Shown here: positions 2,795 to 28,252 of the stretch, piece by piece
How the letters are laid out: each line of letters starts with the position of its first letter
How positions within the stretch are numbered: the stretch's first letter is position 1
IMG/VR virus record: IMGVR_UViG_2541047795_000004
Length of the DNA: 44,950 nucleotides
Strand: one strand, 5' to 3'
Source of the DNA: a virus
Lineage: Duplodnaviria > Heunggongvirae > Uroviricota > Caudoviricetes
Notes under the pieces: generated by a model
Told to the model about the DNA's origin: nothing
The model's input: only the letters and a program-made list of their open reading frames with translations
Database searches by the model: none
Position numbers and translations under genes: made by a program

Positions 2795-5387
2795 TTGCAT
2801 ATTCCTTAGCCCAGCGGGGCAGTGATAATGTCTTAATAGCTGGCCATTCATCGGTATTCAGGCAGTCAGACAGGGTTCGCAGATTGCGGTGATATTCCTG
2901 TTGACCTGCCAGTTTTGCTTCTTCGCCCATCATGAAAATTTCAACCGGATAACGTCCGCATTCAATAGTTGTGCTGGCAACCAGAAAAACGAAAGTTGGC
3001 TGCACTCCAAACTGTGCTTCATAACCGTCACTGTAGAATGCATCCTGAACGTGATAGCGGTAGTCGTAATAAGCGGTTTTGAATCGTTGAATATCCGCCG
3101 TAGTTTTCACGTCCATGATCCAGTGAAATTCAGGGATAATTTTGTCCGGACGGCACCGACACAAAATTCCTGTTTCAGGATCTTTCCAGTAAATTGATGA
3201 TTCAGCGTGTCCGGCGCTTTCAACAAGCCATTGCCCCAGCGGCAAAGCCATAACGCTTTGATACATGAGTTCAATTTTCCGGCCTTCTTCCGCAGTGATA
3301 ACCGTTTTTCCTGTGCTTGCGCATTCCATCAGAAACGCTTTCTCTTCTTCTTTTCCGGCGTTTGTACGGCGGTTAAATTCAGGTGCTACGATAAAGCGGT
3401 TACTGAATTCTTCCGGTTCAAGTACCCGGCAGTGGAAAGCAGTTCCTAAATCGAGCGTTTTTGTCTTTGTGGTGTCCACGGGGGCATTTTTACGCCACAA
3501 ATATAGTGCCGGAGTATCAGCAATGTCATCGAGCTGAGACTTACTGATACCGGGACCCGCGTGGTAATTCTCATTCGAAATTCCGTAATAAATACCTGGC
3601 TCTATGTCTTCTACGATTACGGGATCTGCGACTTCGCCAGTTTCATCACTGCAATCGCGATGCGGATCGCTGCCAGCATTCTCATTGTGCGGATGTTCAG
3701 CGCCTTCCATTTCCTCCGGATCATTTTCCTTAGCTTCAACCTGACTCTCTTCATCGAATGTTTCCTGGTATGTTGCGTCGCCCATCACCGCACCACAGTC
3801 AGGGCAGTTATCCCCGCCAGTCTGGCCGCAGGCATTGCAGGCTATTTCCGGTTCCTGTTGCACTACTGGCTCAGGTTGATTCATATCTGGGCTGGTTTTT
3901 TCCGTTTCTGGCTGGTTCTGGTACACACAATCGCGAGTCTGGATCCCCTTTACCCATTTCGGATCGTTCGGGTCGCTAATTCCGTCAACAAATTCACCAC
4001 GTGATGCAGCAAGCAATTTATCGGCATCGACAGGATTTTTTGATGGAATGTTTTTCCGGGCTTCATGGAGTTCTGCCCGCAGTTCCTGATATTTCGCATC
4101 AACAGAATTTACCTGTGACTGAGCATCCAGCGGCTGCGTGTCCTGATGATGTTCAGTTGCGTCCGGTTCCATTGTTTCAGCCTCTCCCTGTTCAACTGCC
4201 GTTGTTCCAGATGGTTGCGGTTTTTCTTCATCATCCTGTTTTCCTTCTTCTGTTACTCGCTGCGGCATCGGGGCAGAGGAGCGACCGCAGGCAATATCCA
4301 CGATTTCCGGATCAGGGTTGGCATGATCGGTTTCAGTCAGTGCTTTGTTCAGATATTCAGTGACGTGCGCGGGGATGACCTCGATCCCAATTGGTGCTTC
4401 TTTTACGGACGCAACCACGATGGCGCGGGAATAATCCAGCCCGCCAGGCATGGTGATGAATTTGTCGCGGAAAACAGAAAAGGGCGGTTTATTTTCAGCG
4501 ATAATTTCCTCAATGCGTTTAGCGTGTGCCGGATGAAGGTTATAGATGTCCAGATCCATTGAACGGGCCAGTACGCCAGTGGCTACGTCGCGCGCCAGTG
4601 ACGTCAGATCGTGTACGAAACCTTCGCCGCGATCGGTGAGGTTTCCGCCGCCAGCATTAGCACCGGAAGCCGTGCGAGTGATGTGTGAAACACGATTACC
4701 CTTCATCCACTCTTTTGTCAGCAGTCCTCGATCGGTGTAGTCAGCGTTCAGGTATGCTTCGAAAAAAGCAGTTATCAGTCCCAGGTTTGAATTACCAGGA
4801 TTAGGGAAAACTTTGTCAGTGTCACGAACCAGTTTGTGGAGTTCGCGAATTTCCAGCGGGTCGAGCAGGCTGGTTTTGTGGGAAACAGCCAGGGCAGTAA
4901 CAGCCGGTAGTTCTTCAGCCCGAGCAATGTGTAATGCCTGGAGTCCGTCGCGTGAAACGTGCGTTACCGGTTTTTCGCTGCCGTGTTGAGCAAGCCAACG
5001 AATGGGCAGTTCCTGGCCAGAAATTGGGAGTAGCATATTCTCCTCAATCTCAGTCATGTCTTCGCCGTTGACGTTGGTATTGCCTTGATAGTGAGCGTTG
5101 TCTGGTGCTGCTCCCGGTTTTAGTTCCCATGTCATGGAGTCTTTGCTGAGTTGATAGCGTTCACTCCAGGTAAAATCGATCTCACCTTCAGCGGGCAGGT
5201 CATTAACGACAGGAAAATTCGTGGCAACAGCTTTAAAATAGCTGCTCAGTTTTTTACCTGACTTAACGATCAGGTAGTCCAGAGTGGCACAGGTCGATTC
5301 AAAATCGTTGCTTGCCCACAGGACGACGTCAGGTTCACCGGATGATTTTTTCGCTTTCCGTAACAGGAAGAGTGGTTTTGTGCTCAT
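2787..5387 (-). CDS. recE: RecE exonuclease VIII, 866 aa
   Basis: 866-aa ORF whose C-terminal region ([22 protein letters not shown]...) matches RecE as recalled; sits upstream of and overlaps recT. Confidence 0.93.
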
Positions 5388-5488
5388 TGTTTTTTAACCT
5401 CAACTCAGATTAAAATTCGTTTTGTTCAGTGAATGATCTTGCCGGATACACACTGTTCATAGCCTGCGCCATACGCAGGCTATTTCTT

Positions 5489-5764
5489 TCAGATTTCACC
5501 TTTTAATTTCATTGCAATTAGAGTTGCCAGAAATTCGGCTTTTTTTTCTGCGGGCAGATTCTTTCCGATATGCACCAGGCACATTTTTTTGACACCTTCA
5601 TCAAGTGTTTTTACGTTGCCTGATGGACCATCGATATCAACCACAGTGAATGGGGTTTCTTTATTTTCTGTTTTAATTACGTAGCCAATGCGCTTTCCTT
5701 CCAGATTCACCTCGTGAACAATGTCATCGGTAGTTACAACAGTGGCTTCATAATTGGTAATCAT
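5489..5764 (-). CDS. racC: RacC-like small protein, 91 aa
   Basis: Start at MITNYEATVVTTDD with an AAGGAG Shine-Dalgarno; position upstream of recE. Confidence 0.75.
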   Translation of the reverse strand: MITNYEATVVTTDDIVHEVNLEGKRIGYVIKTENKETPFTVVDIDGPSGNVKTLDEGVKKMCLVHIGKNLPAEKKAEFLATLIAMKLKGEI

Positions 5765-5838
5765 GTTTTTCTCCTTAATTAAGGTTGAGCGAATACCTGC
5801 CATTTCTGGCATAAATTCAGTTTCGAATAGTCAATTAA

Positions 5839-6009
5839 TTAAAGTTCATGTGCCATCTGGTCTTTTTCGGCACAAGCTTCACTGCAATATTTTCTCGGTT
5901 CGTCTTTTGATAAAATCCCGTGCATGAAGTGAAGCATTCTTTCAATAGCTTTGCTTTCTTCAACGTCTTTTTTGCAAAGGTGGTAAGCACATTTTATTTT
6001 CTTAGTCAT
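5839..6009 (-). CDS. ydaE: YdaE-like Cys-rich small protein, 56 aa (below the ORF-track size cut-off)
   Basis: Hand-translated minus-strand [59 protein letters not shown]; its ATG overlaps the kilR stop as TGATG (6007-6011). Confidence 0.6.
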   Translation of the reverse strand: MTKKIKCAYHLCKKDVEESKAIERMLHFMHGILSKDEPRKYCSEACAEKDQMAHEL

Positions 6010-6230
6010 CACCATGACTCCGCCTTTACAGGTAAACCATCACGACCGAGGAAGACTTTAATCATGCGGTCAGTAATGCATGTTTTTGTGGTCAGGTTAC
6101 GAATATATAGTTTTCGCTTTTTAATATTGTTTGCCGAGGCAATATATGTCCGGCCTTCATGAAGAACATAATCGCCAGGAGTCACACACTGACGTGGTAT
6201 TTCATCAGTTCCGAAGTGATGTGCAATCAT
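6009..6230 (-). CDS. kilR: KilR-like cell-division inhibitor, 73 aa
   Basis: Sequence from [29 protein letters not shown] matches KilR as recalled; GGAGA Shine-Dalgarno before the ATG at 6230. Confidence 0.8.
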
Positions 6231-6671
6231 AATTATCTCCATTTTTACAAATGAACTTTGTTGATGCGGTGCCTGGTGCCTCCAGGTGACTGCAACCAGT
6301 TAACAATTACAGTCGGCTTTCCCACCCAAACCAATAAGGACTAACATGACTTTTAACTGTGCCACGTGCGCTTAGCCGCATTCACCGCATCACAAAATTC
6401 ACTTTAAAAAGGGCGGACATCAGCCGAACTTCAAGAAAAAAACTGATGCCGCCAGGACTACACACAGCAATGTCGTTATTTACAACCGGAGGCGCACTCC
6501 CACCATTTAAATTTAACAGACAAGACCGACTCTTTATGGATATCGGAAATGCGCCTTCGTGTTGTGCCCGGTTTTATTTCACCACCTCCGGGCTTCGGTG
6601 GTCTCGGCTATACCCCTACAGCGAGAGCTTGTGTTAACATTTCAATACCCTTACAGTTGAGAGTTATTGAT

Positions 6672-7160
6672 ATGTTGGATGTATTTACTCCATTGTTGAA
6701 ACTTTTTGCTAACGAGCCACTCGAAAGACTTATGTATACGATTATCATTTTTGGTCTCACTCTCTGGCTGATACCGAAAGAGTTTACTGTCGCATTCAAT
6801 GCTTATACTGAAATACCTTGGCTCTTTCAGATTATCGTTTTTGCCTTTTCTTTCGTGGTCGCCATTTCCTTCTCAAGATTGCGAGCACATATTCAAAAGC
6901 ATTATTCATTACTACCAGAGCAACGAGTATTGCTTCGTTTATCTGAGAAAGAAATCGCTGTATTTAAAGATTTCCTTAAAACAGGAAATCTTATTATCAC
7001 TTCTCCTTGCCGTAACCCGGTTATGAAAAAATTAGAACGGAAGGGCATCATTCAACATCAGAGTGATAGCGCAAACTGTTCTTATTATCTCGTCACCGAA
7101 AAATACTCCCATTTTATGAAGTTATTCTGGAACAGCAGGAGTAGACGTTTTAATCGTTAG
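6672..7160 (+). CDS. sieB: Superinfection exclusion protein B, 162 aa, membrane protein
   Basis: Sequence from MLDVFTPLLKLFANEPLERLMYTIIIFGLTLWLIPKEF with hydrophobic helices; the ORF-track N-terminal extension from 6549 is probably not translated. Confidence 0.85.
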   Translation: MLDVFTPLLKLFANEPLERLMYTIIIFGLTLWLIPKEFTVAFNAYTEIPWLFQIIVFAFSFVVAISFSRLRAHIQKHYSLLPEQRVLLRLSEKEIAVFKDFLKTGNLIITSPCRNPVMKKLERKGIIQHQSDSANCSYYLVTEKYSHFMKLFWNSRSRRFNR

Positions 7161-7312
7161 CTTACTGTGTGCTTCTCCAACCATCGGCGCGCACCAGTTT
7201 CGGTTTTAAATGTTTTGCTTTTGGTATACGTCATGGCAGTGAACGTTCCATCCTGGTTGGGGAACACGCCGCACACCAGGGATTCGTTGTTGCCGAGGTC
7301 GATTTTTTGCAT
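7157..7312 (-). CDS. ydaF: YdaF-like small protein, 51 aa (hand-translated)
   Basis: Minus-strand ORF MQKIDLGNNESLVCGVFPNQDGTFTAMTYTKSKTFKTETGARRWLEKHTVS; converges on the sieB end. Confidence 0.5.
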   Translation of the reverse strand: MQKIDLGNNESLVCGVFPNQDGTFTAMTYTKSKTFKTETGARRWLEKHTVS

Positions 7313-7322
7313 TTTGCGAATC

Positions 7323-7457
7323 TCACATCTTGTTGCTACGTATAGCGACTTCTGCCTGCCAGAGATCCCAGTCGTTGCTGCGTAAAGCCTGCACAGCCTG
7401 GTTGTAAGTGATACCGCAACAATCCATCAAATACTGAACTACTTCGTAATGCACCAT
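7323..7457 (-). CDS. ydaG: YdaG-like small protein, 44 aa (hand-translated)
   Basis: Minus-strand ORF MVHYEVVQYLMDCCGITYNQAVQALRSNDWDLWQAEVAIRSNKM between racR and ydaF. Confidence 0.5.
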   Translation of the reverse strand: MVHYEVVQYLMDCCGITYNQAVQALRSNDWDLWQAEVAIRSNKM

Positions 7458-7744
7458 CTTATCTATCCCCTTAACGCCGGGTGGCGGAACTAACTGCTGC
7501 ACTGCAAAATTTGAATCCCGCCGTCATGTTCATACGCCTCGGGCTGGCTACTTAACCCCTGACCACTGCCTGGTAACTCGAAGTATTGCCCGGCGTTCTG
7601 TGGGGCGGGGTGGGTTGGTAGGTATATAATGTACTTTGTGTTCATCATTGTAAAGTACTTTAAGTACATTTTATGTATAAAAAAATGAGACGGGATAAAG
7701 TGAAGCACAAACCCGGAGGGGGACGCTACCGGATTTATGCTGGT

Positions 7745-8164
7745 TTAAGAGGCTTTTTGTTTTTTCTTTCGTGCTAACTCTTCGTAAATTGCATTGTACT
7801 TCTGTTTTTTCTCCTCAAGAGTTTTTAAAAGTTCATCTGTCTCACTGTCAGGGAGCTCGTCCAGAAGGTCAATGATGATTTTTTGTCTTGGATTTAACTC
7901 CTGATAGAAACGTATCTGTCCACTTTCTTCTGTATCCTCTCCCAAAAGATAGGTTGGTGTTGTTCCAATGAGTGTTGCTAATTCCCTTAATTTCTCTCGG
8001 CGAGGAATTGTTTCACCATTAAACCATTTGCTAACCGCTTTTGGTGTTAATTTCATTCGACGGGCAATTTCTGCCTGCCTTCCATGTTGTTCATAACCAG
8101 CGTTTTCACAGGCTAGCGCAAGCCTACTGGCGAACTCTTTACGCGCTTTATCTTCATGAACCAT
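7745..8164 (-). CDS. racR: Prophage repressor (RacR-like, HTH XRE-type, no LexA-like peptidase domain evident)
   Basis: N-terminal helix-turn-helix (QAEIARRMKLTPKAVSKWFNGETIP); divergent from a Cro-like gene; C-terminal part is acidic and Lys-rich with no S24 peptidase motifs. Confidence 0.75.
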   Translation of the reverse strand: MVHEDKARKEFASRLALACENAGYEQHGRQAEIARRMKLTPKAVSKWFNGETIPRREKLRELATLIGTTPTYLLGEDTEESGQIRFYQELNPRQKIIIDLLDELPDSETDELLKTLEEKKQKYNAIYEELARKKKQKAS

Positions 8165-8243
8165 AAGTTCAATGATATTCGCTCTTGAATGTACTGTCAG
8201 TTCTGTTATAGCATGTACTCAAAGTTCACATTGTGAGGATGAT
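8165..8243. promoter_or_regulatory. Divergent promoter/operator region between the repressor and the Cro-like gene
   Basis: 79-bp intergenic interval between divergent starts; contains repeated ATGTACT motifs (GAATGTACTGTCAG and GCATGTACTCAAAG). Confidence 0.4.
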
Positions 8244-8498
8244 ATGAACCAGAAAACACTTGAAGATGTAATCAAAACTGTTCGCGTTTCTGTTGTGGCC
8301 GACGTTTGTGGTGTCAGCCAAAGAGCAATCTACAAATGGATGGATAACGGAAAATTGCCTCGCACAGAATATACCGGCGAAACAAATTACGCTGAAAAAA
8401 TCGCTCATGCATCAAACGGATTATTTTCTGCCGATGCAATTTTAACTATTGGCAGAAATAAAACTACTACGAAAAAGCTGATGGGAGTTGATTCATGA
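8244..8498 (+). CDS. ydaS: Cro-like HTH regulator (YdaS-like); start uncertain (ORF open from 8172)
   Basis: HTH motif VADVCGVSQRAIYKWMDNGKLP; ATG at 8244 has a GAGGA Shine-Dalgarno, whereas the ATG at 8172 would leave only 8 nt to the divergent repressor start. Confidence 0.6.
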   Translation: MNQKTLEDVIKTVRVSVVADVCGVSQRAIYKWMDNGKLPRTEYTGETNYAEKIAHASNGLFSADAILTIGRNKTTTKKLMGVDS

Positions 8499-8917
8499 AA
8501 ATCAAGCATGAGCACATCGAATCAGTGTTGTTAGCCCTGGCAGCCGAAAAAGGGCAGGCGTGGGTCGCTAACGCAATTACTGAAGAATATCTGCACCAGG
8601 GGGGCGGCGAATTGCCCCTGGTACCAGGCAAGGACTGGAACAATCAGCAGAATATCTATCATCGTTGGTTGAAAGGTGAAACGAATGCGCAAAGGGAAAA
8701 AATTCAGAAACTGATCCCTGCGGTTCTGGCAATTCTTCCTCGCGAGCTGCGTCACCGACTCTGCATCTTCGATACCCTGGAACGCCGTGCATTACTGGCG
8801 GCACAGGATGCACTGAGTACGGCAATTGATGCGCATGATGATGCAGTCCAGGCCGTTTACCGTAAAGCACATTTCAGCGGCGGCGGTTCTCCTAGCGATT
8901 CTGTCGTAGTGCATTGA
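8495..8917 (+). CDS. ydaT: YdaT-like protein, 140 aa (possible CII-like regulator or toxin)
   Basis: 140-aa ORF overlapping the Cro-like stop; size and position match YdaT as recalled. Confidence 0.6.
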   Translation: MKIKHEHIESVLLALAAEKGQAWVANAITEEYLHQGGGELPLVPGKDWNNQQNIYHRWLKGETNAQREKIQKLIPAVLAILPRELRHRLCIFDTLERRALLAAQDALSTAIDAHDDAVQAVYRKAHFSGGGSPSDSVVVH

Positions 8918-8961
8918 TTGAAATTAATCGTACCGAACTGTTTTGTTCGGTATCAGTTAAA

Positions 8962-8982
8962 TGTAACGCTGCGAGCGTTACA
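8962..8982. repeat. 21-bp palindrome TGTAACGC-N5-GCGTTACA, copy 1
   Basis: Perfect 8-5-8 inverted repeat read directly from the sequence, just upstream of the replication gene start. Confidence 0.7.
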
Positions 8983-9153
8983 AGGTGAAAACAAATGGCT
9001 TCAAACTGGATAAAGCTCGAAGTTATTACGCCGGATAAGCCGGAAATATTCAGGCTTGCTGAGATTCTGAATATTGATCCAGATGCCGCATTAGGGAAAG
9101 TCATTCGCTTCTGGGCATGGGCGGATCAACAAATGATAGACGGTAACGCAGAG

Positions 9154-9174
9154 TGTAACGCTCGAGGCGTTACA
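9154..9174. repeat. 21-bp palindrome TGTAACGC-N5-GCGTTACA, copy 2
   Basis: Perfect 8-5-8 inverted repeat inside the replication gene; a GGTAACGC half-site lies at 9142-9149. Confidence 0.7.
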
Positions 9175-9361
9175 AAAAGTGCAATAGACCGTATCACTTT
9201 TATGGCTGGTTTTGCTGATGCGTTAATTCAGGTTGGATGGCTGGTCGAAAGTGATGGAGTGCTTTCACTACCAAACTTTGAGCGTCATAACGGAAAAAGC
9301 TCGAAAAAAACGGGCGGTTACAAACGAGAGAGTTACAAAAATACGCGAACTGAAGCGAAAA

Positions 9362-9382
9362 GGTAACGCTGCCAGCGTTACA
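9362..9382. repeat. 21-bp palindrome GTAACGC-N7-GCGTTAC, copy 3
   Basis: Same half-sites as copies 1 and 2; further GTTACAAA and GCGTTACC half-sites nearby (9317-9340, 9398-9406). Confidence 0.65.
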
Positions 9383-9790
9383 CAAACGGATCAAAAAGCG
9401 TTACCAGAGGAAGAGGAAGAGGAAGATATAAATACTGATCTCCCCCTAAATCCCCCTCGGCAAAAACGAGCGTCTAAACAATTCGAGCCGGAGGCCATTG
9501 CTCTGCCCGACTGGTTGCCAGAAACACTCTGGAATGAGTGGGTCCAGTTCAGGCAGGCATTGCGAAAACCGATTCGAACGGAGCAGGGCGCTAACGGGGC
9601 GATACGGGAACTGGAAAAATTCCGCCAGCAGGGTTTTACCCCTGAGCAGGTGATTCGACACAGCATCGCCAATGAATACCAGGGCTTGTTCGCGCCGAAA
9701 AGTGTTCGGCCTGAGACGTTGCTCCGACAGGTTAACACTGTCTCGTTTCCGGACAGTGCGATCCCGCCAGGCTTCAGGGGGTAACTGACC

Positions 9791-10537
9791 ATGAAAAATA
9801 TTGCGACAGGCGGCGTTCTGGAACGTATCCGCAGACTGGCCCCGCCACATGTAACCGCGCCATTCAGGACGGTGGCGGAGTGGCGCGAGTGGCAACTTGC
9901 AGAAGGCCAGAAACGTTGCGAGGAGATCAATCGCCAGAATCGTCAGTTGCGGGTGGAAAAAATTCTGAATCGCTCCGGCATCCAGCCGTTGCACCGCAAA
10001 TGCTCGTTTTCGAATTACCAGGTGCAGAACGACGGCCAGCGATACGCGTTGAGCCAGGCGAAATCCATCGCCGATGAACTGATGGTCGGGTGTACAAATT
10101 TTGCGTTTAGCGGAAAACCTGGTACCGGAAAAAACCATCTGGCGGCGGCTATCGGGAATCGCCTGCTGAAAAACGGTCAGACAGTGATTGTGGTTACCGT
10201 GGCTGATGTTATGAGTGCTCTACACGCCAGCTATGACGACGGGCAATCAGGCGAAAAATTTTTGCGGGAACTGTGCGAAGTGGATCTGCTGGTTCTTGAT
10301 GAAATTGGCATTCAGCGCGAGACAAAAAACGAGCAGGTGGTACTGCACCAGATTGTTGATCGCCGGACAGCGTCGATCCGCAGCGTGGGGATGCTGACAA
10401 ACCTGAACTATGAGGCCATGAAAACATTGCTCGGCGAGAGGATTATGGATCGGATGACCATGAACGGCGGGCGATGGGTGAATTTTAACTGGGAGAGCTG
10501 GCGCCCGAATGTTGGTCAGCCAGGAATTGAGAAGTAA
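9791..10537 (+). CDS. ydaV: DnaC-like helicase loader (IstB-like AAA+ ATPase, YdaV-like)
   Basis: Walker A SGKPGTGKNHLAAAIG and Walker B DLLVLDEIG; directly follows the initiator-like gene. Confidence 0.85.
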   Translation: MKNIATGGVLERIRRLAPPHVTAPFRTVAEWREWQLAEGQKRCEEINRQNRQLRVEKILNRSGIQPLHRKCSFSNYQVQNDGQRYALSQAKSIADELMVGCTNFAFSGKPGTGKNHLAAAIGNRLLKNGQTVIVVTVADVMSALHASYDDGQSGEKFLRELCEVDLLVLDEIGIQRETKNEQVVLHQIVDRRTASIRSVGMLTNLNYEAMKTLLGERIMDRMTMNGGRWVNFNWESWRPNVGQPGIEK

Positions 10538-11884: not shown

Positions 11885-12403
11885 ATGGAAATAACTAAAG
11901 AACGATTATTGGAAATAGCAAATCTTAGTGATGGGGCATTAAGTGATGGGAGAATTATTTCTCCTGATGCTTATGAATCAGTTACAAGTATAGAAATAAT
12001 AACGATGGCTAGGATGCTTCTTGCGCGATTCAAAAAAGAATATAAAAAACAGGTAGATAGCAATGCTAATATATATGATATTTTGGACGGTTGGGGAGCC
12101 TGGGCTGTAGCTGAAAATAGTTCTATTGATTGGCAGGAAATAGCTGATAAATATAAAAATGTTGTTCCTCATGGTAAAAAATCACGTCGTCAGTGCAGCA
12201 ATGATGAAGGGGGTATAATTGATACCTGCATGTTGAGGCTTAAACAATATAGGATAGATGACTATGAGTTAATTATCGCTCATTTTGTTATGGGAGTTTC
12301 ATTGCGTTGTTTAGCTAAGATAAACGAATGTTCAGATGGTAAAATAAGGAAAAAAATGCAAATGGCAATGGGATTTATTGCAGGTTGTATCTATTACCGT
12401 TGA
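11885..12403 (+). CDS. Q-like antiterminator paralog (QuuD/phage-82-type resemblance), AT-rich
   Basis: WGAW motif followed by a Cys-containing segment and a C-terminal helix, parallel to the Q gene at 16732; GGTGGAG Shine-Dalgarno before the ATG at 11885. Confidence 0.45.
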   Translation: MEITKERLLEIANLSDGALSDGRIISPDAYESVTSIEIITMARMLLARFKKEYKKQVDSNANIYDILDGWGAWAVAENSSIDWQEIADKYKNVVPHGKKSRRQCSNDEGGIIDTCMLRLKQYRIDDYELIIAHFVMGVSLRCLAKINECSDGKIRKKMQMAMGFIAGCIYYR

Positions 12404-12433: not shown

Positions 12434-13867
12434 TTAACTACAGTAACTATTGATTAAGTGAGAACTGAGCCAAGAGGTAATTGCATTCGTAGCATGTTCA
12501 TCAAGCATTGAGAATCCTAATATGATCATTATAAATGAAATCAGCAAAGTCAGAATCACAACGAATGTGGCTATAATCTGATAAGCTTTGTATGCTTCTC
12601 TTAATGGTGTGACTGCAAGATTCTCATAGTCAGTATCATCAAGAAAACCATATAGTTTATCTCTCCAGACTAGCCTAGTATTATCAAGTATCTTAAAGTA
12701 ATTTTTATTTATGAAGAGAGTTGTAACCTGAGATATAAAAATATATATAGATAACGCGAAGAACATATATGGGAATATGTTATTGGTTATATTAATCTTT
12801 GATGCGTCTAGCGCATATTTTATTGCAAATAGACTTATAACCAGAGCCAGATCTTTCCAAAGAGCGGATGTGATGTCTTTAGACTGACTTATTATTTTTT
12901 GCGTGTCTTCAGCTAAGGTTTTCCTTAGATCGGACAGAGATTTAATAGTCTCTCTGCTGCTAGCGCGAATGTGGGCCTTATATAGTAATTTTGCTGACTC
13001 AAAGGCCATAGGGAGTTTTTTTGGTAAACCCTCACAGAAGGATACATACTCTGGCCATTCTCGTGCTAACTCACTTGTGAAGAAAGTATGTTTGAGTTCA
13101 ATCTCATTGCCCTCAATAAAGATCCAGTTTATTACAGTTTGTAAAACTGAATAGTCGGAAAGCAGAATGTCTGGATCTCCATAAATTAATTTTTTTGGTG
13201 GCTTTCCAGTTAAACAAATTGATTTCTTTTCATCTGCTAATAATTCATTAACGAGAGTGCGACAAAGCATATTGCAGGAAACTTGTAACCATTTTTTGAA
13301 AAAGTTGTCCTCTGCCTCAGGCATTTTATAAAGTACCCAAGGAGCTATATCAGATGCAGGCATGAACTCACTAGAATAGAATTTAACGTAGCTCTGTAAA
13401 TTGATTGAAGTTCGTACGGTTTCATTAGATTCAATTTTTTCTGGAGCATGGTTCCATGGCTCAACAGAATATCCTAAAGTTTCAAATCCATGTTTCAAAC
13501 CGAGAATATTCACTTTATTGGTTATTGATACTAAATCATCATTGTGTAGAAAAACATTCCACCCTTCGAGCGTAAAAATATACCTGTTATTTTCGAATGC
13601 AATGCATTTTAGCGTAATGTTAAGTTTATCACCTTCACTGCATGACGATGGTTTTACTTCATCATTACAGTCATCTTTAACAGTAATTTCAATCCAATTT
13701 GGTACGTTTTCGTAAACGTACTGCCAAAGAATGAGTGCATCTTTGTCCATTTTGGCAGAAATTAGAACGCGCGCAGAATCATTTTTTATTGATTCTGATG
13801 CCAAAAATTCAGGGTCTTTCCTTGACGCCTGTATAGACTCATCGATTTTTTGAAGTATCGATGTCAT
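12434..13867 (-). CDS. Cassette gene B: uncharacterised 477-aa protein, large soluble N-terminal domain plus C-terminal transmembrane helices
   Basis: Hydrophobic helices IFPYMFFALSIYIFISQVTTLFI and IIATFVVILTLLISFIMIILGFSML near the C-terminus; GAGGA Shine-Dalgarno 10 nt before the ATG at 13867; overlaps gene A by 29 nt; AT-rich. Confidence 0.7.
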   Translation of the reverse strand: MTSILQKIDESIQASRKDPEFLASESIKNDSARVLISAKMDKDALILWQYVYENVPNWIEITVKDDCNDEVKPSSCSEGDKLNITLKCIAFENNRYIFTLEGWNVFLHNDDLVSITNKVNILGLKHGFETLGYSVEPWNHAPEKIESNETVRTSINLQSYVKFYSSEFMPASDIAPWVLYKMPEAEDNFFKKWLQVSCNMLCRTLVNELLADEKKSICLTGKPPKKLIYGDPDILLSDYSVLQTVINWIFIEGNEIELKHTFFTSELAREWPEYVSFCEGLPKKLPMAFESAKLLYKAHIRASSRETIKSLSDLRKTLAEDTQKIISQSKDITSALWKDLALVISLFAIKYALDASKINITNNIFPYMFFALSIYIFISQVTTLFINKNYFKILDNTRLVWRDKLYGFLDDTDYENLAVTPLREAYKAYQIIATFVVILTLLISFIMIILGFSMLDEHATNAITSWLSSHLINSYCS

Positions 13868-14897
13868 CAGTAATAATCCTCGCAGTAGTAACAATAATTT
13901 GTTTTCGCCCATCATCTAAGTTTCTTATTTCTGGACGGTCATCTTCATTATAACTAATTACTACACTTTCTGCAGTTTCAATTTTTCGTCTTGGTGGTTT
14001 ATGAATGCCATCTGCTTTTATAGTAAAGGATTCGCCTTCAATACCAGCATTTTTTGTTTGAGTTTTGAATGTGTTGAGAATTGGTGATTTTTCATCTAAC
14101 GGCCCAAAAATGCTGGTCAATAACGGAGAAGCATCTTCAGGATTATATTCGAAATCAGCTCTGCTTAAAACTTCATATATTTTATTTACGCCGCTTTTTT
14201 GAATTGACTCTGGCAATAATTCTTTATGCCTTTTGAAGGTTATTTTCAGCGCATCAATAAGCTTATTGCAAAGTTCAATTTCAGAGTTGACTCTTTTAAC
14301 ATTTAAGAAGCCTTTAAAATATCCTGAAATATTGGTTCTTTTACTCCTGTCTTTTACAATAACTTTCCCGCCTTTCCCACTTGGATCAAGTTGAATTAAC
14401 GCTATTTTTTGCATTGCCTCAGCTTTTTTTACGAAAGTTTCATGAAATCTTTCTAAAGTAGGCATTTGTTCTTCAGATAACTTTTCGTCAAGAACATAAC
14501 GAACCACATCTTCATTATCGTATTTTATAATTGCATAGAATTTTTCCTTATCTGAAACCAATTCAAATAAGAAAAAGCATCCCATACTCGTGTTACCGCT
14601 AGAATGGTGTGACTGAAAATCACTGGCCAGTAGCTTCGATTGTTCTGTAAAACAATTAGCTTCAGCATCTGCTTTATCTCTAATGATACGCAGGATTCTT
14701 TCGGTATTTGAATTCTCCAGAAAAGTGAAAAGATTTCCTTTCAGTGAAGATTTGATACGTTCAAGAAAAAAATCCACATGCTGAACTGGTTTTATTTCTT
14801 TGAGAAGTGTCGGTGCTTCAAGATTCTTACCTACAACGTGAAAGATCATTTTATTAATGACTAAATTTTGTACGTCTTGTTCAGAAAGGAAACTCAT
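13839..14897 (-). CDS. Cassette gene A: uncharacterised 352-aa cytoplasmic protein, tentative weak resemblance to NA37/YejK-type nucleoid-associated proteins
   Basis: GGAG Shine-Dalgarno before the ATG at 14897; no transmembrane segment; the NA37 resemblance is by eye only and unverified. Confidence 0.7.
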   Translation of the reverse strand: MSFLSEQDVQNLVINKMIFHVVGKNLEAPTLLKEIKPVQHVDFFLERIKSSLKGNLFTFLENSNTERILRIIRDKADAEANCFTEQSKLLASDFQSHHSSGNTSMGCFFLFELVSDKEKFYAIIKYDNEDVVRYVLDEKLSEEQMPTLERFHETFVKKAEAMQKIALIQLDPSGKGGKVIVKDRSKRTNISGYFKGFLNVKRVNSEIELCNKLIDALKITFKRHKELLPESIQKSGVNKIYEVLSRADFEYNPEDASPLLTSIFGPLDEKSPILNTFKTQTKNAGIEGESFTIKADGIHKPPRRKIETAESVVISYNEDDRPEIRNLDDGRKQIIVTTARIITDDIDTSKNR

Positions 14898-15226: not shown

Positions 15227-15382
15227 ATGAAGCAGCAAAAGGCGATGTTAGTCGCCCTGATCGTCATCTGTTTAACCGTTATAGTGACGGTACTGGTAAC
15301 GAGGAAAGACCTCTGCGAGGTACGAATCCGAACCGACCAGACGGAGGTCGCTGTCTTCACAGCTTACGAACTTGGGGAGTAA
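15227..15382 (+). CDS. hok: Hok/Gef-family type I toxin, 51 aa
   Basis: MKQQKAMLVALIVICLTVIVTVLVTRKDLCEVRIRTDQTEVAVFTAYE is a Hok-family sequence with one transmembrane helix; a 7-bp stem-loop follows at about 15389-15407. Confidence 0.8.
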   Translation: MKQQKAMLVALIVICLTVIVTVLVTRKDLCEVRIRTDQTEVAVFTAYELGE

Positions 15383-16445: not shown

Positions 16446-16735
16446 TGGTGGATTTACGTAAAGCGGCGCGGGGGCAGATGTGCACCGTCAGAATTCCTGG
16501 CTACTGCAATCACGATCCGGAAACGTCTGTGCTGGCGCATTACCGACTGGCGGGAACGTGCGGAACAGCGACAAAACCACACAATATGCAGGCGGCGATT
16601 GCCTGTAGCTCATGCCACGATCTAATCGACGGGCGGGTAAAAACCATCGATTACACCAAAGAAGAATTACGCCTGATGCATGCAGAAGGTGTTCTTCGCA
16701 CACAAGAAATCTGGAGAAAGGAGGGATATTTATGA
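16445..16735 (+). CDS. YbcO-like Cys-rich putative nuclease (DUF1364-like), 96 aa
   Basis: Cys pattern C..C....C...CSSCHD and size characteristic of nin-region YbcO-type proteins. Confidence 0.55.
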   Translation: MVDLRKAARGQMCTVRIPGYCNHDPETSVLAHYRLAGTCGTATKPHNMQAAIACSSCHDLIDGRVKTIDYTKEELRLMHAEGVLRTQEIWRKEGYL

Positions 16736-17274
16736 TTTACCCAACGAATACAGGAAAAAGCGGAGAACACCTTCGTCTCACCACGCTGGAAAGTGTCTGG
16801 ATTCAGGGAAAACTACGTATGTGGGGGCGCTGGTCGTATATTGGCGGCGGTAAGACGGGGAATATGTTCAACCAGTTGTTGGCCTCTAAAAAGCTGACAA
16901 AAACGGCAATTAACGAGGCGCTCCGGAGGATGAAAAAAGCAGGTCTGAACAAGTCTGAACTTGAGGCTTTTTTGCGGGATATGATTAACGGTAAGCAAAA
17001 GAGCTGGCTGGCGCATTGTACTGATGCAGAGGCGTTATGTATTGATCGGGTCATAAGTGAGGTGCTGGCAGAGCATCCAGGATTGATTAGCGTCCTTCGG
17101 CAACGGTATGAGGGGCGGGGGATGACCAAACGCAAAATGGCTGAATTGCTAAATGATGCACACCCAGAGTGGTGTTTTAGCACATGCGAAAAGCGAATTG
17201 CTAATTGGTTGGCCGTTGCTGAGTATGCGCTATACATTCCCATGCGAGAATCATTCGCTCAAAAAACGGCTTGA
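16732..17274 (+). CDS. Late-gene antiterminator Q, 180 aa
   Basis: ATG at 16732 with GGAGGG Shine-Dalgarno, overlapping the upstream stop; WGRW motif; immediately upstream of a promoter-like region, a terminator, tRNAs and the lysis cassette. Confidence 0.6.
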   Translation: MIYPTNTGKSGEHLRLTTLESVWIQGKLRMWGRWSYIGGGKTGNMFNQLLASKKLTKTAINEALRRMKKAGLNKSELEAFLRDMINGKQKSWLAHCTDAEALCIDRVISEVLAEHPGLISVLRQRYEGRGMTKRKMAELLNDAHPEWCFSTCEKRIANWLAVAEYALYIPMRESFAQKTA

Positions 17275-17627: not shown

Positions 17628-17703
<76 letters not shown>

Positions 17704-17706
17704 TAT

Positions 17707-17781
<75 letters not shown>

Positions 17782-19871: not shown

Positions 19872-21329
19872 ATGAATACATCTCATGTAAGAGTTGTTAC
19901 TCATATGTGTGGGTTCCTGGTTTGGCTCTATAGTCTTTCAATGTTGCCACCAATGGTTGTAGCATTGTTTTATAAAGAAAAAAGCCTGTTCGTTTTCTTT
20001 ATAACTTTCGTTATATTTTTTTGCATTGGTGGCGGAGCGTGGTATACAACTAAGAAATCTGGCATTCAATTACGTACCCGTGATGGGTTTATTATAATTG
20101 TAATGTTTTGGATTTTGTTTTCTGTTATTAGTGCATTCCCTTTATGGATTGACTCAGAACTTAATTTAACGTTCATTGATGCTCTGTTTGAAGGGGTTTC
20201 TGGAATAACAACAACAGGAGCAACTGTAATTGATGATGTTAGTTCATTACCTCGGGCATATTTGTACTATCGGTCACAGTTAAATTTTATAGGTGGTTTA
20301 GGAGTTATTGTTCTGGCGGTTGCTGTATTGCCATTATTGGGTATTGGTGGTGCAAAGCTTTATCAGTCAGAAATGCCGGGGCCATTTAAGGATGACAAAC
20401 TCACTCCCCGCCTGGCCGATACGTCACGGACACTGTGGATAACTTATTCTTTATTAGGTATTGCTTGTATTGTCTGTTATAGACTTGCAGGAATGCCTTT
20501 GTTTGATGCTATTTGTCACGGGATTTCCACAGTTTCGCTTGGTGGTTTCTCAACTCATAGCGAGAGTATCGGATATTTTAATAACTATTTGGTTGAGCTG
20601 GTGGCTGGTTCTTTTTCCCTGCTATCGGCTTTCAACTTCACTCTTTGGTATATTGTTATTAGCAGGAAAACGATAAAACCTTTAATCAGAGATATTGAAC
20701 TTCGTTTCTTTCTGTTAATAGCCTTAGGGGTGATCATTGTTACCTCTTTCCAGGTCTGGCATATAGGTATGTATGACTTGCATGGAAGTTTTATTCATTC
20801 GTTTTTTCTTGCCAGCTCCATGCTCACTGATAATGGTTTAGCTACGCAGGATTATGCAAACTGGCCCACGCACACGATAGTGTTTTTGCTGTTGTCAAGT
20901 TTCTTTGGGGGATGTATAGGTTCAACTTGTGGTGGAATTAAGTCACTTCGATTTCTTATACTTTTCAAACAAAGCAAACACGAGATAAATCAGCTTTCTC
21001 ATCCCAGAGCGTTGTTGAGTGTAAATGTAGGAGGGAAGATAGTTACAGATCGTGTAATGAGGTCTGTATGGAGTTTCTTTTTTCTTTATACTCTCTTCAC
21101 GGTGTTTTTTATACTGGTGTTAAATGGTATGGGATATGATTTTCTTACATCATTTGCAACAGTGGCTGCATGTATTAATAATATGGGATTAGGTTTTGGG
21201 GCTACTGCATCGTCATTCGGAGTGCTTAATGACATTGCAAAATATTTAATGTGCATAGCTATGATTCTTGGTCGCCTTGAAATTTATCCTGTTATTATAT
21301 TGTTTTCAGGTTTTTTTTGGCGCTCCTAA
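19872..21329 (+). CDS. trkG: TrkG potassium-uptake membrane protein (moron)
   Basis: 485-aa polytopic membrane protein from MNTSHVRVVTHMCGFLVWLYS, matching TrkG as recalled; AT-rich with AT-rich flanks. Confidence 0.9.
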   Translation: MNTSHVRVVTHMCGFLVWLYSLSMLPPMVVALFYKEKSLFVFFITFVIFFCIGGGAWYTTKKSGIQLRTRDGFIIIVMFWILFSVISAFPLWIDSELNLTFIDALFEGVSGITTTGATVIDDVSSLPRAYLYYRSQLNFIGGLGVIVLAVAVLPLLGIGGAKLYQSEMPGPFKDDKLTPRLADTSRTLWITYSLLGIACIVCYRLAGMPLFDAICHGISTVSLGGFSTHSESIGYFNNYLVELVAGSFSLLSAFNFTLWYIVISRKTIKPLIRDIELRFFLLIALGVIIVTSFQVWHIGMYDLHGSFIHSFFLASSMLTDNGLATQDYANWPTHTIVFLLLSSFFGGCIGSTCGGIKSLRFLILFKQSKHEINQLSHPRALLSVNVGGKIVTDRVMRSVWSFFFLYTLFTVFFILVLNGMGYDFLTSFATVAACINNMGLGFGATASSFGVLNDIAKYLMCIAMILGRLEIYPVIILFSGFFWRS

Positions 21330-27156: not shown

Positions 27157-28252
27157 ACGGCTGCGTGATGAATCAATTGCTCATGCAGTCTGGATATCCC
27201 GCTATAGCACTGGTGTGGCTGCCAGAATGGTGAAAATACTGAATGACAGCGATGCGGAGCTTACAGCTCGCCTGCTGGTAGCACTGGACAGCCTCGATCC
27301 TGGTAGTTTTACCGTTACGCGCCTGGAGTCACTTCTGGCGAGTGTCAGAGAGGTTAACCGCGCTGCTATTAACAGCATGTTTACCAGTCTCTCCGGAGAG
27401 CTGAACGAGCTGGCAATTTATGAGGCTGGTTATCAGTTAAGTCTGTTTGATTCTCTGCTACCTGATTTTGTTGCTGATGTTCACCCTCTGGTTGGTATAT
27501 CTTCTGATGCACTTTACGCCGCTGCAATGGCGCGACCATTCCAGGGACGACTGCTCAGTGAGTGGGCCTTGGATCTTGAGGCGGATCGGCTCAGACGCAT
27601 AACAAATACGGTGCGTCAGGGTTTTTTGCTGGGGGATACCAATGAGCAGATCGCAAGAAAAATTCGGGGACATGTCAGCAAGGGATTTCAGGATGGTGCA
27701 TTGCAGATGAGCCGGGCTAATGCGGCCAGCATTGCAAAAACAGCGGTTGGACATCTTGCTGCTACTGCCCGTGAGAGTTTTGCCAGCGCGAATAATGATT
27801 TGATTAAGGGTAAGCAATGGTTATCAACGCTTGATAATCGTACTACGCCACAATGTCGAATCAGGGATCGCCTCAAATATACGCTGGATAATAAACCTGT
27901 AGGTCACAGTGTGCCTTATTTGCATGGGCCGGGAAAAATTCATTTCTGCTGCCGCTCAACGGAAACGTTCATTCTGAAATCAGCGAAGGAACTGGGTATT
28001 GATGTTCGTGATATTTCCCCGGCTGAGCGGGCCAGCATGGATGGCGTGGTGGCCGGAGATACAACCTACAGGGAATGGTTTTTGCGTCAGCCTTACACCA
28101 GACAAAAACAGATTGTGGGGGAAACCCGGGCAAAGCTGATTCGGGATGGCGGTATGTCGCCAGATGAATTTTACACCGATAAAGGCGAATGGCTGACGCT
28201 GAAGCAACTCCGTGAGCGTGATGCACAGGTATTCAGAAAAGCAGGGATTTAA
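27137..28252 (+). CDS. Head morphogenesis protein (minor head protein)
   Basis: 371-aa ORF after the portal gene, overlapping its end; terminator follows. Confidence 0.65.
   Translation: MMQTVNERLRDESIAHAVWISRYSTGVAARMVKILNDSDAELTARLLVALDSLDPGSFTVTRLESLLASVREVNRAAINSMFTSLSGELNELAIYEAGYQLSLFDSLLPDFVADVHPLVGISSDALYAAAMARPFQGRLLSEWALDLEADRLRRITNTVRQGFLLGDTNEQIARKIRGHVSKGFQDGALQMSRANAASIAKTAVGHLAATARESFASANNDLIKGKQWLSTLDNRTTPQCRIRDRLKYTLDNKPVGHSVPYLHGPGKIHFCCRSTETFILKSAKELGIDVRDISPAERASMDGVVAGDTTYREWFLRQPYTRQKQIVGETRAKLIRDGGMSPDEFYTDKGEWLTLKQLRERDAQVFRKAGI

Follow-up and report, generated by a model that had tools for sequence, protein, structure and literature searches.

The 44,950-nucleotide stretch of viral DNA analysed here (IMG/VR record IMGVR_UViG_2541047795_000004, hereafter the window) carries a prophage repressor gene that diverges from a cro-like gene and from ydaT. 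This region is the immunity (lysis-lysogeny) region of a Rac-family lambdoid prophage located at ttcA, and it is very probably best explained as a mosaic switch, in which an HK022-type cassette is joined at a YdaT-box to the ydaT and replication genes of Rac, and which is blind to RecA. An earlier sequence-only reading had proposed an immunity switch composed of these three genes around a 79-bp divergent region; genes and region were found as described, and the switch itself was borne out. The object as such is already known, given that prophage Sp10 of Escherichia coli O157:H7 Sakai and its relatives have been described, with the missing peptidase domain of the repressor and the lack of induction by the SOS response in print since 2009. 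The additions made here are modest, comprising the HK022-type nature of the operators, the Cro protein and the repressor N-domain, the exact swap point, a definition of the shared C-terminal tail and a candidate second YdaT-box.

The HK022-type cassette and its Rac-type surroundings

The window starts at the end of intR, beside ttcA, which is the Rac attachment site, and shows a single mismatch in 18,400 bases against the chromosomal Rac-site prophage of E. coli THO-008. Both arms are Rac-like, with xisR, rcbA, ralR, recT, recE, racC, ydaE, kilR, sieB and ydaF on the left and ydaT, a ydaU-like gene, ydaV, DUF1627 and DUF977 on the right; beyond the latter lies a complete late region. In three-way alignments of the window with K-12 Rac and phage Tritos, only the segment at ~7617-8488 departs from K-12. 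This exchangeable immunity cassette, consisting of the left operators (OL), the repressor gene, the right operators (OR) and cro, replaces the racR-ydaS cassette of K-12 Rac. Its left breakpoint follows GTGGGGCGGGGTGGG(T)TGG at ~7616-7620 and its right one lies at ~8488, at the YdaT-box, where the joint sequence at the ydaT start is TGATTCATGAAAATCAAGCATGA; judged by these alignments, the cassette represents a classic heteroimmune swap. K-12 Rac shares with the window its backbone, attachment site, gene order and YdaT-box at the ydaT start, whereas its repressor and Cro are non-homologous to those of the window, and GCCTAAT-type repeats stand where the window has the operator pattern ATGWAC-N5-GTWCAT.

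In Sakai Sp10, a prophage of the CP-933R type, the cassette (ECs_1941, ECs_1942 and ECs_1943) is identical to that of the window at 919 of 921 nt, the repressor ECs_1941 is 100% identical, and the ttcA site and flanking Rac-type genes are the same. The two prophages differ in their nin and late regions; the NA37 moron and trkG are present only in the window, which in turn lacks the late-region 'antirepressor' ECs_1965 of Sp10. Of 5426 complete E. coli genomes, 1049 (~19%) contain the cassette, the repressor gene is intact in 1047 genomes, and Tritos carries the same operators and a repressor 99.3% identical to that of the window.

The cassette belongs, by sequence comparison, to the HK022 type and not to the RacR/YdaS type. 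Residues 6-102 of the repressor (7745-8164, minus strand, 139 aa) are 46% identical to the CI protein of HK75, a 235-aa, S24-bearing repressor of HK022 immunity, and the recognition helices of the two are near-identical (TPKAVSKWFNGE in the window and TPKAISKWFNGE in HK75). The Cro-type lytic repressor (8244-8498, plus strand, 84 aa), which begins with an ATG at 8244 rather than 8245 and is preceded 5 nt upstream by a GAGGA Shine-Dalgarno sequence, is 58% identical to the HK022-type Cro of HK75. It is also 61% identical to the Cro of a Salmonella prophage locus of the same architecture, where a short-tailed repressor 65% identical to that of the window is found, and it matches phrog_35 (repressor-type helix-turn-helix, HTH) in PHROGs and weak HTH families in Pfam. 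The YdaS/YdaT-like pair perceived in the sequence-only reading was not supported: YdaT was rightly recognised as such, but the Cro-like protein is no YdaS; a match to PF15943 (YdaS) was not obtained in Pfam, and BLASTP against YdaS gave E=0.028 over 18 residues. Its assignment to YdaS or DicC was rejected, as it has no meaningful similarity to either. An assignment of the repressor to RacR was rejected as well, because it scored 13.7 bits against the NCBIfam RacR model NF049929 (cut-off 200) and its BLASTP likeness to RacR (12/33 identities) is confined to the HTH.

The repeated ATGTACT motifs that had been pointed out are indeed present and clustered by the repressor gene, with two copies in the intergenic region of 79 bp at 8165-8243 (at 8189 and 8213) and two just downstream of the repressor gene (at 7629, and at 7663 on the minus strand), the flanking copies accounting for four of the five in the window. 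However, their number alone is not above chance (5 against 3.35 expected, with 23 of 100 shuffles reaching 5), and it is the clustering and an extended 17-bp pattern that carry the signal. ATGTACT constitutes the left half of this 17-bp pseudo-palindrome, ATGWAC-N5-GTWCAT, which with up to two mismatches occurs 12 times in the 45-kb window against 5.2 expected, five of the 12 lying in the two control regions. As the pattern was derived from the five sites themselves, homology provides the independent test. The GenBank record of HK75 annotates oR1-3, oL1-3, pR and pL as 'similar to HK022', and the five sites of the window fall on its oR1, oR2, oR3, oL1 and oL2 with equal centre spacings of 24 and 33 bp. 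On the left side, oL1 (ATGTACTTTGTGTTCAT, 7629-7645, no mismatch) and oL2 (AAGTACTTTAAGTACAT, 7653-7669, one mismatch) are 24 bp apart and align to the annotated sites, and a weak oL3-like remnant (TGTATAAAAAAATGA, 7674-7688) was recognised by eye against HK75 oL3. On the right side, OR3 (ATGAACCATAAGTTCAA, 8156-8172, one mismatch) overlaps the repressor start codon (8162-8164), shares the whole of its 15-bp core with the annotated HK022-type oR3 and is conserved in the Salmonella homologue locus; OR2 (ATGTACTGTCAGTTCTG, 8189-8205, two mismatches), 33 bp from OR3 and 24 bp from OR1, and OR1 (ATGTACTCAAAGTTCAC, 8213-8229, one mismatch) align to annotated oR2 and oR1. In the Salmonella locus the three OR sites and their spacing are maintained, with different spacer sequences between them.

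Sequence features of the HK022 group are found together in the window, namely a homologous repressor DNA-binding domain and Cro, and operators of the group's TG(A/T)AC-N5-GTTCA type, of which OR has three and OL two (the group having two to three at OL). HK022 and HK75 also share with it nearly the same operator half-sites, the 24 and 33 bp spacing, the position of OR3 over the repressor start, and homologous pR and pL, so that cross-immunity with HK022 appears plausible. On the other hand, HK022-type CI, a protein of 235 aa, possesses the S24 domain and the Ala-Gly site, whereas the window repressor has a helical tail of 45 aa in place of that domain, the far-right operator OFR is absent from the window, and a YdaT-family gene occupies the place of HK022 cII.

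Candidate promoters were assigned at the corresponding positions. PL (TTTACA-17 nt-CATTAT, 7626-7654, minus strand, 9/12 in a consensus scan) overlaps with both oL1 and oL2, lies where pL is annotated in HK75, and would drive the ydaG-like gene, ydaF, kilR, recET, xis and int leftward. PRM (CTGACA-17 nt-TATCAT, 8172-8200, minus strand, 10/12 in the same scan) aligns with CTGATA-17-TATAGT in HK75. Its putative -10 ends 7 nt ahead of the repressor ATG, which has no Shine-Dalgarno sequence upstream, and these two features together suggest a leaderless or near-leaderless repressor mRNA; the lambda cI mRNA is likewise leaderless. The candidate PR (TTGAAT-16 nt-TATAGC with an upstream TGt, 8185-8214, plus strand), which would drive cro, ydaT and the replication genes rightward, was placed only by its column-for-column alignment with the annotated HK75 pR (TTGACT...CATAAT), having escaped the consensus scan because its -10, TATAGC, lacks the final T.

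Considering these elements, a mode of action for the repressor can be proposed by homology. The HK022-CI-like HTH would bind the predicted 17-bp operators, occupancy of OR1 and OR2 shutting off PR and with it cro, ydaT, ydaU and ydaV, and occupancy of oL1 and oL2 shutting off PL and with it the ydaG-like gene, ydaF, kilR, recET, xis and int. OR3, lying over the start codon, would allow negative autoregulation of the probably leaderless PRM transcript, and the HK022-type Cro would act as counter-repressor, yielding a bistable switch.

The repressor tail and the SOS response

The repressor consists of an XRE HTH domain (residues 2-74), a disordered linker (77-87) and a C-terminal helical tail (92-138). 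It had been suspected of lacking a LexA/CI-type peptidase domain and hence of escaping RecA-mediated autocleavage, and both suppositions were confirmed. In Pfam only HTH_3/HTH_31 were detected, and Peptidase_S24 (PF00717) was not found at E<=0.1, with only ~60 residues available beyond the HTH domain. The AlphaFold2 model (mean pLDDT, the predicted local distance difference test score, of 82.6) is all-helical, with a five-helix HTH domain at 2-74, helices at 92-103 and 106-138 and no beta strands. In a Foldseek search of the PDB it matched XRE-HTH proteins only and no S24 structure, the matches including SinR (1b0n) and SPC32H Rep (5d4z), which are HTH-plus-helical-tail repressors controlled by antagonists. 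A full-length match to phrog_5736 (transcriptional regulator, 1.7e-19) was also obtained in PHROGs. Searched against a large protein database, the N-domain has its closest relatives in S24-bearing proteins 235-240 aa long, which are 62-72% identical across it. In a multiple alignment, the homology to these relatives ends at (I/V)D(L/V)LD, directly before the SAGPG Ala-Gly site; the relatives carry VDVLD-xxSAGPG and GDSM, whereas the window repressor departs just after IDLLD and has neither, presenting LPDSETDELLKTLEEKKQKYNAIYEELARKKKQKAS past the swap point in place of the peptidase domain. Lacking the S24 domain, the Ala-Gly site and the Ser/Lys dyad, the repressor cannot cleave itself, in agreement with the published behaviour of Sp10 (PMC2669165). 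Neither a functional study of ECs1941 / WP_000233319 nor transposon-essentiality data on the CP-933R repressor were found in the literature.

An abrupt end of homology just at the cleavage site could also be expected from a decayed HK022-like CI that had lost its C-terminal domain, which would make the region a non-functional fossil, and the frameshift in a replication gene of the window copy fits with decay. The tail that follows the swap point argues in the other direction. At the Ala-Gly position, the place of S24 is taken by ~45 aa of helical tail with the motif LLxLFxxLPxSE...LEEKKQxY, whose key residues do not vary in Salmonella homologues with an overall identity of 62-65%. The repressor is 28% identical to DicA over residues 30-137, tail included, and its tail aligns to the C-terminus of Gifsy-2 GtgR. 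When the 56-aa tail by itself served as query in an exhaustive HMMER search, 39 clusters at 50% identity were recovered, all of them short proteins bearing the tail at their extreme C-terminus behind diverse HTH domains, with the consensus LxPRxxILLxLFxxLPxSEQDELxxxLEEKKQxYDxLxEEL in the 39-cluster alignment. A tblastn search of phages with the same tail returned nothing beyond the identical proteins, which is probably an effect of low-complexity masking. By these comparisons the tail is a real conserved module and no truncation scar. Furthermore, the repressor gene is intact in the 1047 genomes noted above, its transcription in the LF82 lysogen exceeds background 24-fold, it serves Tritos, a phage that forms plaques (PMC9928086), and an Sp10 lysogen is stable in K-12 (PMC2669165). 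The fossil explanation is accordingly considered extremely improbable.

In its layout (~135-150 aa, an XRE HTH, an LLxLFxxLPxSE helical tail and no cleavage site), the repressor conforms to the class of short non-cleavable repressors, of which GfoR, GtgR, DicA and RacR have been described together with antirepressors (PMC3121763, PMC10448788). It scored 56 bits against the NCBIfam DicA model, below the cut-off of 101, and therefore belongs to the DicA/GtgR/GfoR class without being a DicA orthologue. DicA of Qin and GtgR/GfoR of the Gifsy prophages resemble it in their length of ~135-140 aa, the absence of an Ala-Gly site, the divergent Cro-like gene and the presence of PL-side division inhibitors under repressor control (PMC3121763, PMC10448788). 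They differ in that identity to the window repressor is just 25-28%, the N-domain of the latter is HK022-like and the operators are not the same; additionally, they are antagonised by Rem, GftA, GfoA and FsoA, whereas the window has no recognisable cognate antirepressor, dinI or LexA box.

This kinship raises the question of how the switch is released. The Sp10 repressor was already reported in 2009 by Asadulghani et al. to have no peptidase domain, and Sp10 was not inducible by mitomycin C, although spontaneous excision, packaging and transfer to K-12 did occur (PMC2669165). Similarly, Tritos forms plaques and is released spontaneously from LF82, where strong induction by ciprofloxacin was confined to the prophages Gally and Cyrano and Tritos output fell slightly under trimethoprim (PMC9928086). 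The GenBank 'phages' vB_EcoS-666R9, -673R7 and -613R10 were rejected as evidence of induction, being PHASTER predictions and not isolated viruses. Within the window, a perfect LexA box (CTGT-N8-ACAG) does not occur, and a LexA-controlled antirepressor in cis was rejected on that account, the one-mismatch site at 6297 upstream of kilR having CAG for the critical CTG. Homologues of Rem, of the Gifsy-2 GftA-like open reading frame (ORF) STM1020.1n, which lies next to dinI, and of DinI were not found in the window by tblastn (all E>0.5), nor were antirepressor or defence families found among the early and nin-region ORFs in PHROG, Pfam and PADLOC scans. A Hok/Gef-family toxin gene is present at 15227-15382, and the ~460 bp after hok contain no rem homologue; in Qin, the antirepressor gene rem adjoins hokD.

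With no response to RecA, no LexA box and no recognisable antirepressor, derepression would therefore be either stochastic or dependent on a factor supplied in trans. In the latter case, which would refine rather than replace the mosaic-switch explanation, a small antirepressor, for example from another prophage of the same host, would couple the switch to DNA damage or another signal. The tail is common to GtgR and DicA, both of which are inactivated by antirepressors (PMC3121763, PMC10448788), antirepression across prophages is documented (PMC3121763), with GfoA/GftA/FsoA of Gifsy and Rem of Qin acting on DicA as models, and some Rac-like prophages carry a rem homologue. Nevertheless, Rem, GftA-like and DinI homologues are all absent from the window, as are perfect LexA boxes, Tritos has no rem, and neither Sp10 nor Tritos was induced by mitomycin C, ciprofloxacin or trimethoprim in polylysogenic hosts. 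A trans-acting antirepressor is thus possible but rather unlikely, and it was rated below simple stochastic, bistable switching.

YdaT, its boxes and the toxin interpretation

The gene ydaT (8495-8917, plus strand, overlapping the cro stop by 4 nt) encodes a 140-aa CII-analogue transcription factor. This protein shares 94% identity with the YdaT of K-12, its DNA-binding residues H56, R57 and W58 being conserved, and it matches PF06254 (YdaT_toxin) in Pfam with 43.1 bits (cut-off 21) and phrog_163, a CII-like activator, in PHROGs (1.9e-35). Among the three genes, ydaT alone is Rac-like by these comparisons. The YdaT-box TTGATTcatgaaAATCAA (8488-8505) spans the ydaT start codon and also serves as the cassette's right-hand recombination joint. 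No other site in the window matches TTGATT-N6-AATCAA, the consensus of the CP-933P YdaT (PMC9986795), perfectly, and the box is common to the window, K-12 and Tritos. In K-12, the box ATGATTCATGAAAATCAA has been footprinted and is needed for YdaT-dependent leftward activation of racR, of up to 29-fold (PMC11879457), and the YdaT of CP-933P activates a PRE-like promoter between ydaS and ydaT (PMC8630535). A -10-like hexamer was noted, by eye only, 20-21 nt leftward of the box, being TAGTTT in the window and TATGAT in K-12. In Tritos (5036-5461), this repressor-cro cassette is followed, from the same YdaT-box on, by a divergent YdaT-family gene, annotated as 'Rha family', which is 32% identical and has only the first 8 codons in common; because the sharing stops there, box and start codon can be regarded as a conserved recombination joint between modules.

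YdaT-boxes with at most one mismatch number 3 in the window against 0.26 expected. The second of them, the inverted repeat TTGATTATTAATAATCAG (1504-1521, 11/12), is located 51-68 bp upstream of xisR-intR, with a -10-like TAACAT seen by eye 21 nt away on the minus strand, which repeats the geometry seen at the ydaT start; K-12 Rac and Sakai Sp10 have exactly this sequence. The third, TTGATTAAGGGTAAGCAA (27800-27817, one mismatch), lies inside a minor head protein gene and may be due to chance. The two-box pattern would fit a CII-like regulon of PRE and PI, which makes 1504-1521 a candidate analogue of lambda PI; the 2025 study of YdaT makes no mention of xisR or integrase. Extrapolating from the published K-12 and CP-933P experiments, YdaT would bind the box at its own start and fire a leftward PRE-like promoter, antisense through cro into the repressor gene, and would probably also act at the second box. 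The PaaR2-YdaS-YdaT module of CP-933P/Sp12 offers a parallel, as it has a repressor without peptidase motif, no response to mitomycin C and a bistable switch (PMC8630535, PMC9986795). Like the window, CP-933P has the YdaT box TTGATT-N6-AATCAA at the cro/ydaT junction, where YdaT fires the PRE-like promoter; unlike the window, its repressor and Cro belong to unrelated families and it contains an embedded paaA2-parE2 toxin-antitoxin system.

The sequence-only reading had further stated that racR is essential in K-12 because it represses toxic ydaS and ydaT, which is accurate (PMC5700373, PMC5700377), and had supposed the same wiring, and thus a repressor-controlled toxic module, in the window. 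Wiring and YdaT likeness agree with this, but the repressor is not RacR and the toxic part of the proposal is weak. Taken to its full extent, such a proposal would have the repressor mainly hold down a toxic Cro-like protein and YdaT, as an addiction-like element rather than a phage switch. The divergent order of repressor, cro and ydaT, the essentiality of racR and the near-identity to K-12 YdaT, whose expression leads to filamentation and death (PMC11879457), all speak for it. The YdaT of Rac is toxic when its expression is forced, through activation of rcsA (PMC11879457), and toxicity of the window YdaT is plausible given the 94% identity and the conserved H56, R57 and W58. However, the toxin view of YdaS/YdaT is contested, among others in the critique by Jobling (PMC5917428), and the two proteins are now characterised as Cro and CII analogues (PMC8630535, PMC11879457), their toxicity having come to be regarded as a consequence of forced expression (PMC5917428, PMC8630535). 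In CP-933P they form no toxin-antitoxin pair, and that YdaT is non-toxic (PMC8630535). The status of YdaT as a CII analogue is what weakens the toxin interpretation; the Pfam name 'YdaT_toxin' is historical. Moreover, the Cro-like protein is unrelated to YdaS, the same cassette runs the live plaque-forming phage Tritos, and the OL operators also govern the full PL operon, which includes kilR (6009-6230, minus strand), an FtsZ inhibitor according to the K-12 annotation and annotated by RefSeq in the THO-008 locus. In this regard kilR may be a second source of toxicity upon derepression. Any prophage repressor is 'essential' in its own lysogen, and as loss of this one would also free kilR from PL, and lytic genes in intact copies, an essential repressor is to be expected and would not prove a toxin module. 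Family scans gave no match to a type II toxin-antitoxin family, against which the literature on the homologues also argues (PMC8630535, PMC5917428). An addiction-like role is consequently held to be improbable.

Some points nonetheless count against the mosaic-switch explanation, or at least against parts of it. The promoters are consensus or homology calls, the putative PR has a -10 without the usual final T, and consensus-scan matches in the region are no more numerous than in shuffles; the details of PRM are uncertain because its candidate -35 lies inside OR2. A sigma-70 consensus PRE-like promoter was not found inside cro by the consensus scan. The tail, judged solely from its position and its relatives, presumably serves in oligomerisation and, in those relatives, as the surface targeted by antirepressors. 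There are also 20 LexA sites with one mismatch in the window, mostly inside genes, among which a functional one may exist, as may a divergent antirepressor. Finally, the ydaU-like replication initiator gene (8995-9784, plus strand) is frameshifted into ORFs at 8995-9366 and 9233-9784, is a RefSeq pseudogene in the near-identical THO-008 locus and is intact in Sakai Sp10. On account of this frameshift, the window copy may be cryptic or replication-defective and the lysis side of its switch vestigial.

Significance and other features of the window

Current understanding is not overturned by any of these findings, and their practical value lies in annotation, as the RefSeq names 'helix-turn-helix domain-containing protein' and 'toxin YdaT family protein' can be replaced by equivalents of CI, Cro and CII. 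The prophage family occurs in about one fifth of complete E. coli genomes, including O157:H7, adherent-invasive LF82 and human clinical isolates, and their SOS-blind repressor accounts for the failure of DNA-damaging antibiotics to boost these prophages, a point that bears on prophage-mediated gene transfer. With its clean domain swap at the cleavage site, the repressor illustrates how lambdoid phages exchange their induction mode independently of immunity specificity. Two ideas appear to be unreported and are put forward tentatively, at somewhat less than even confidence: that this very common repressor retains the HK022 DNA-binding specificity while its S24 domain was exchanged for the DicA/GtgR-type tail, so that one operator set is served in nature by both SOS-cleavable and SOS-blind repressors, in which case lysogens may possess damage-proof immunity against HK022-type phages, and that a second, conserved YdaT box upstream of xisR-intR completes a PRE and PI pair.

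Several other features were observed along the prophage, although an Rfam scan of 5000-10000 returned no RNA family. The first ORF of the PL operon (7323-7502, minus strand) encodes 59 aa, annotated in RefSeq as 'hypothetical protein', and matches phrog_14709 and, marginally, the UBA-like PF14555 (23.0 bits, cut-off 21.8). Two different Q-like antiterminator genes are present in this one prophage, at 11885-12403 and 16732-17274 (phrog_79 and phrog_753), and between them a two-gene insert lies on the opposite strand (12434-14897, minus). One of its genes encodes an NA37/NdpA-family nucleoid-associated protein (PF04245, 48 bits) and the other a 477-aa protein without Pfam, PHROG or PADLOC match; the insert may be a moron or a defence pair not yet characterised. 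Genes for tRNA-Thr(tgt) and tRNA-Gly(tcc) are found upstream of the lysis genes, at 17628-17781, and the host-type potassium transporter gene trkG (~19872-21329) follows the lysis cassette, as in K-12 Rac.

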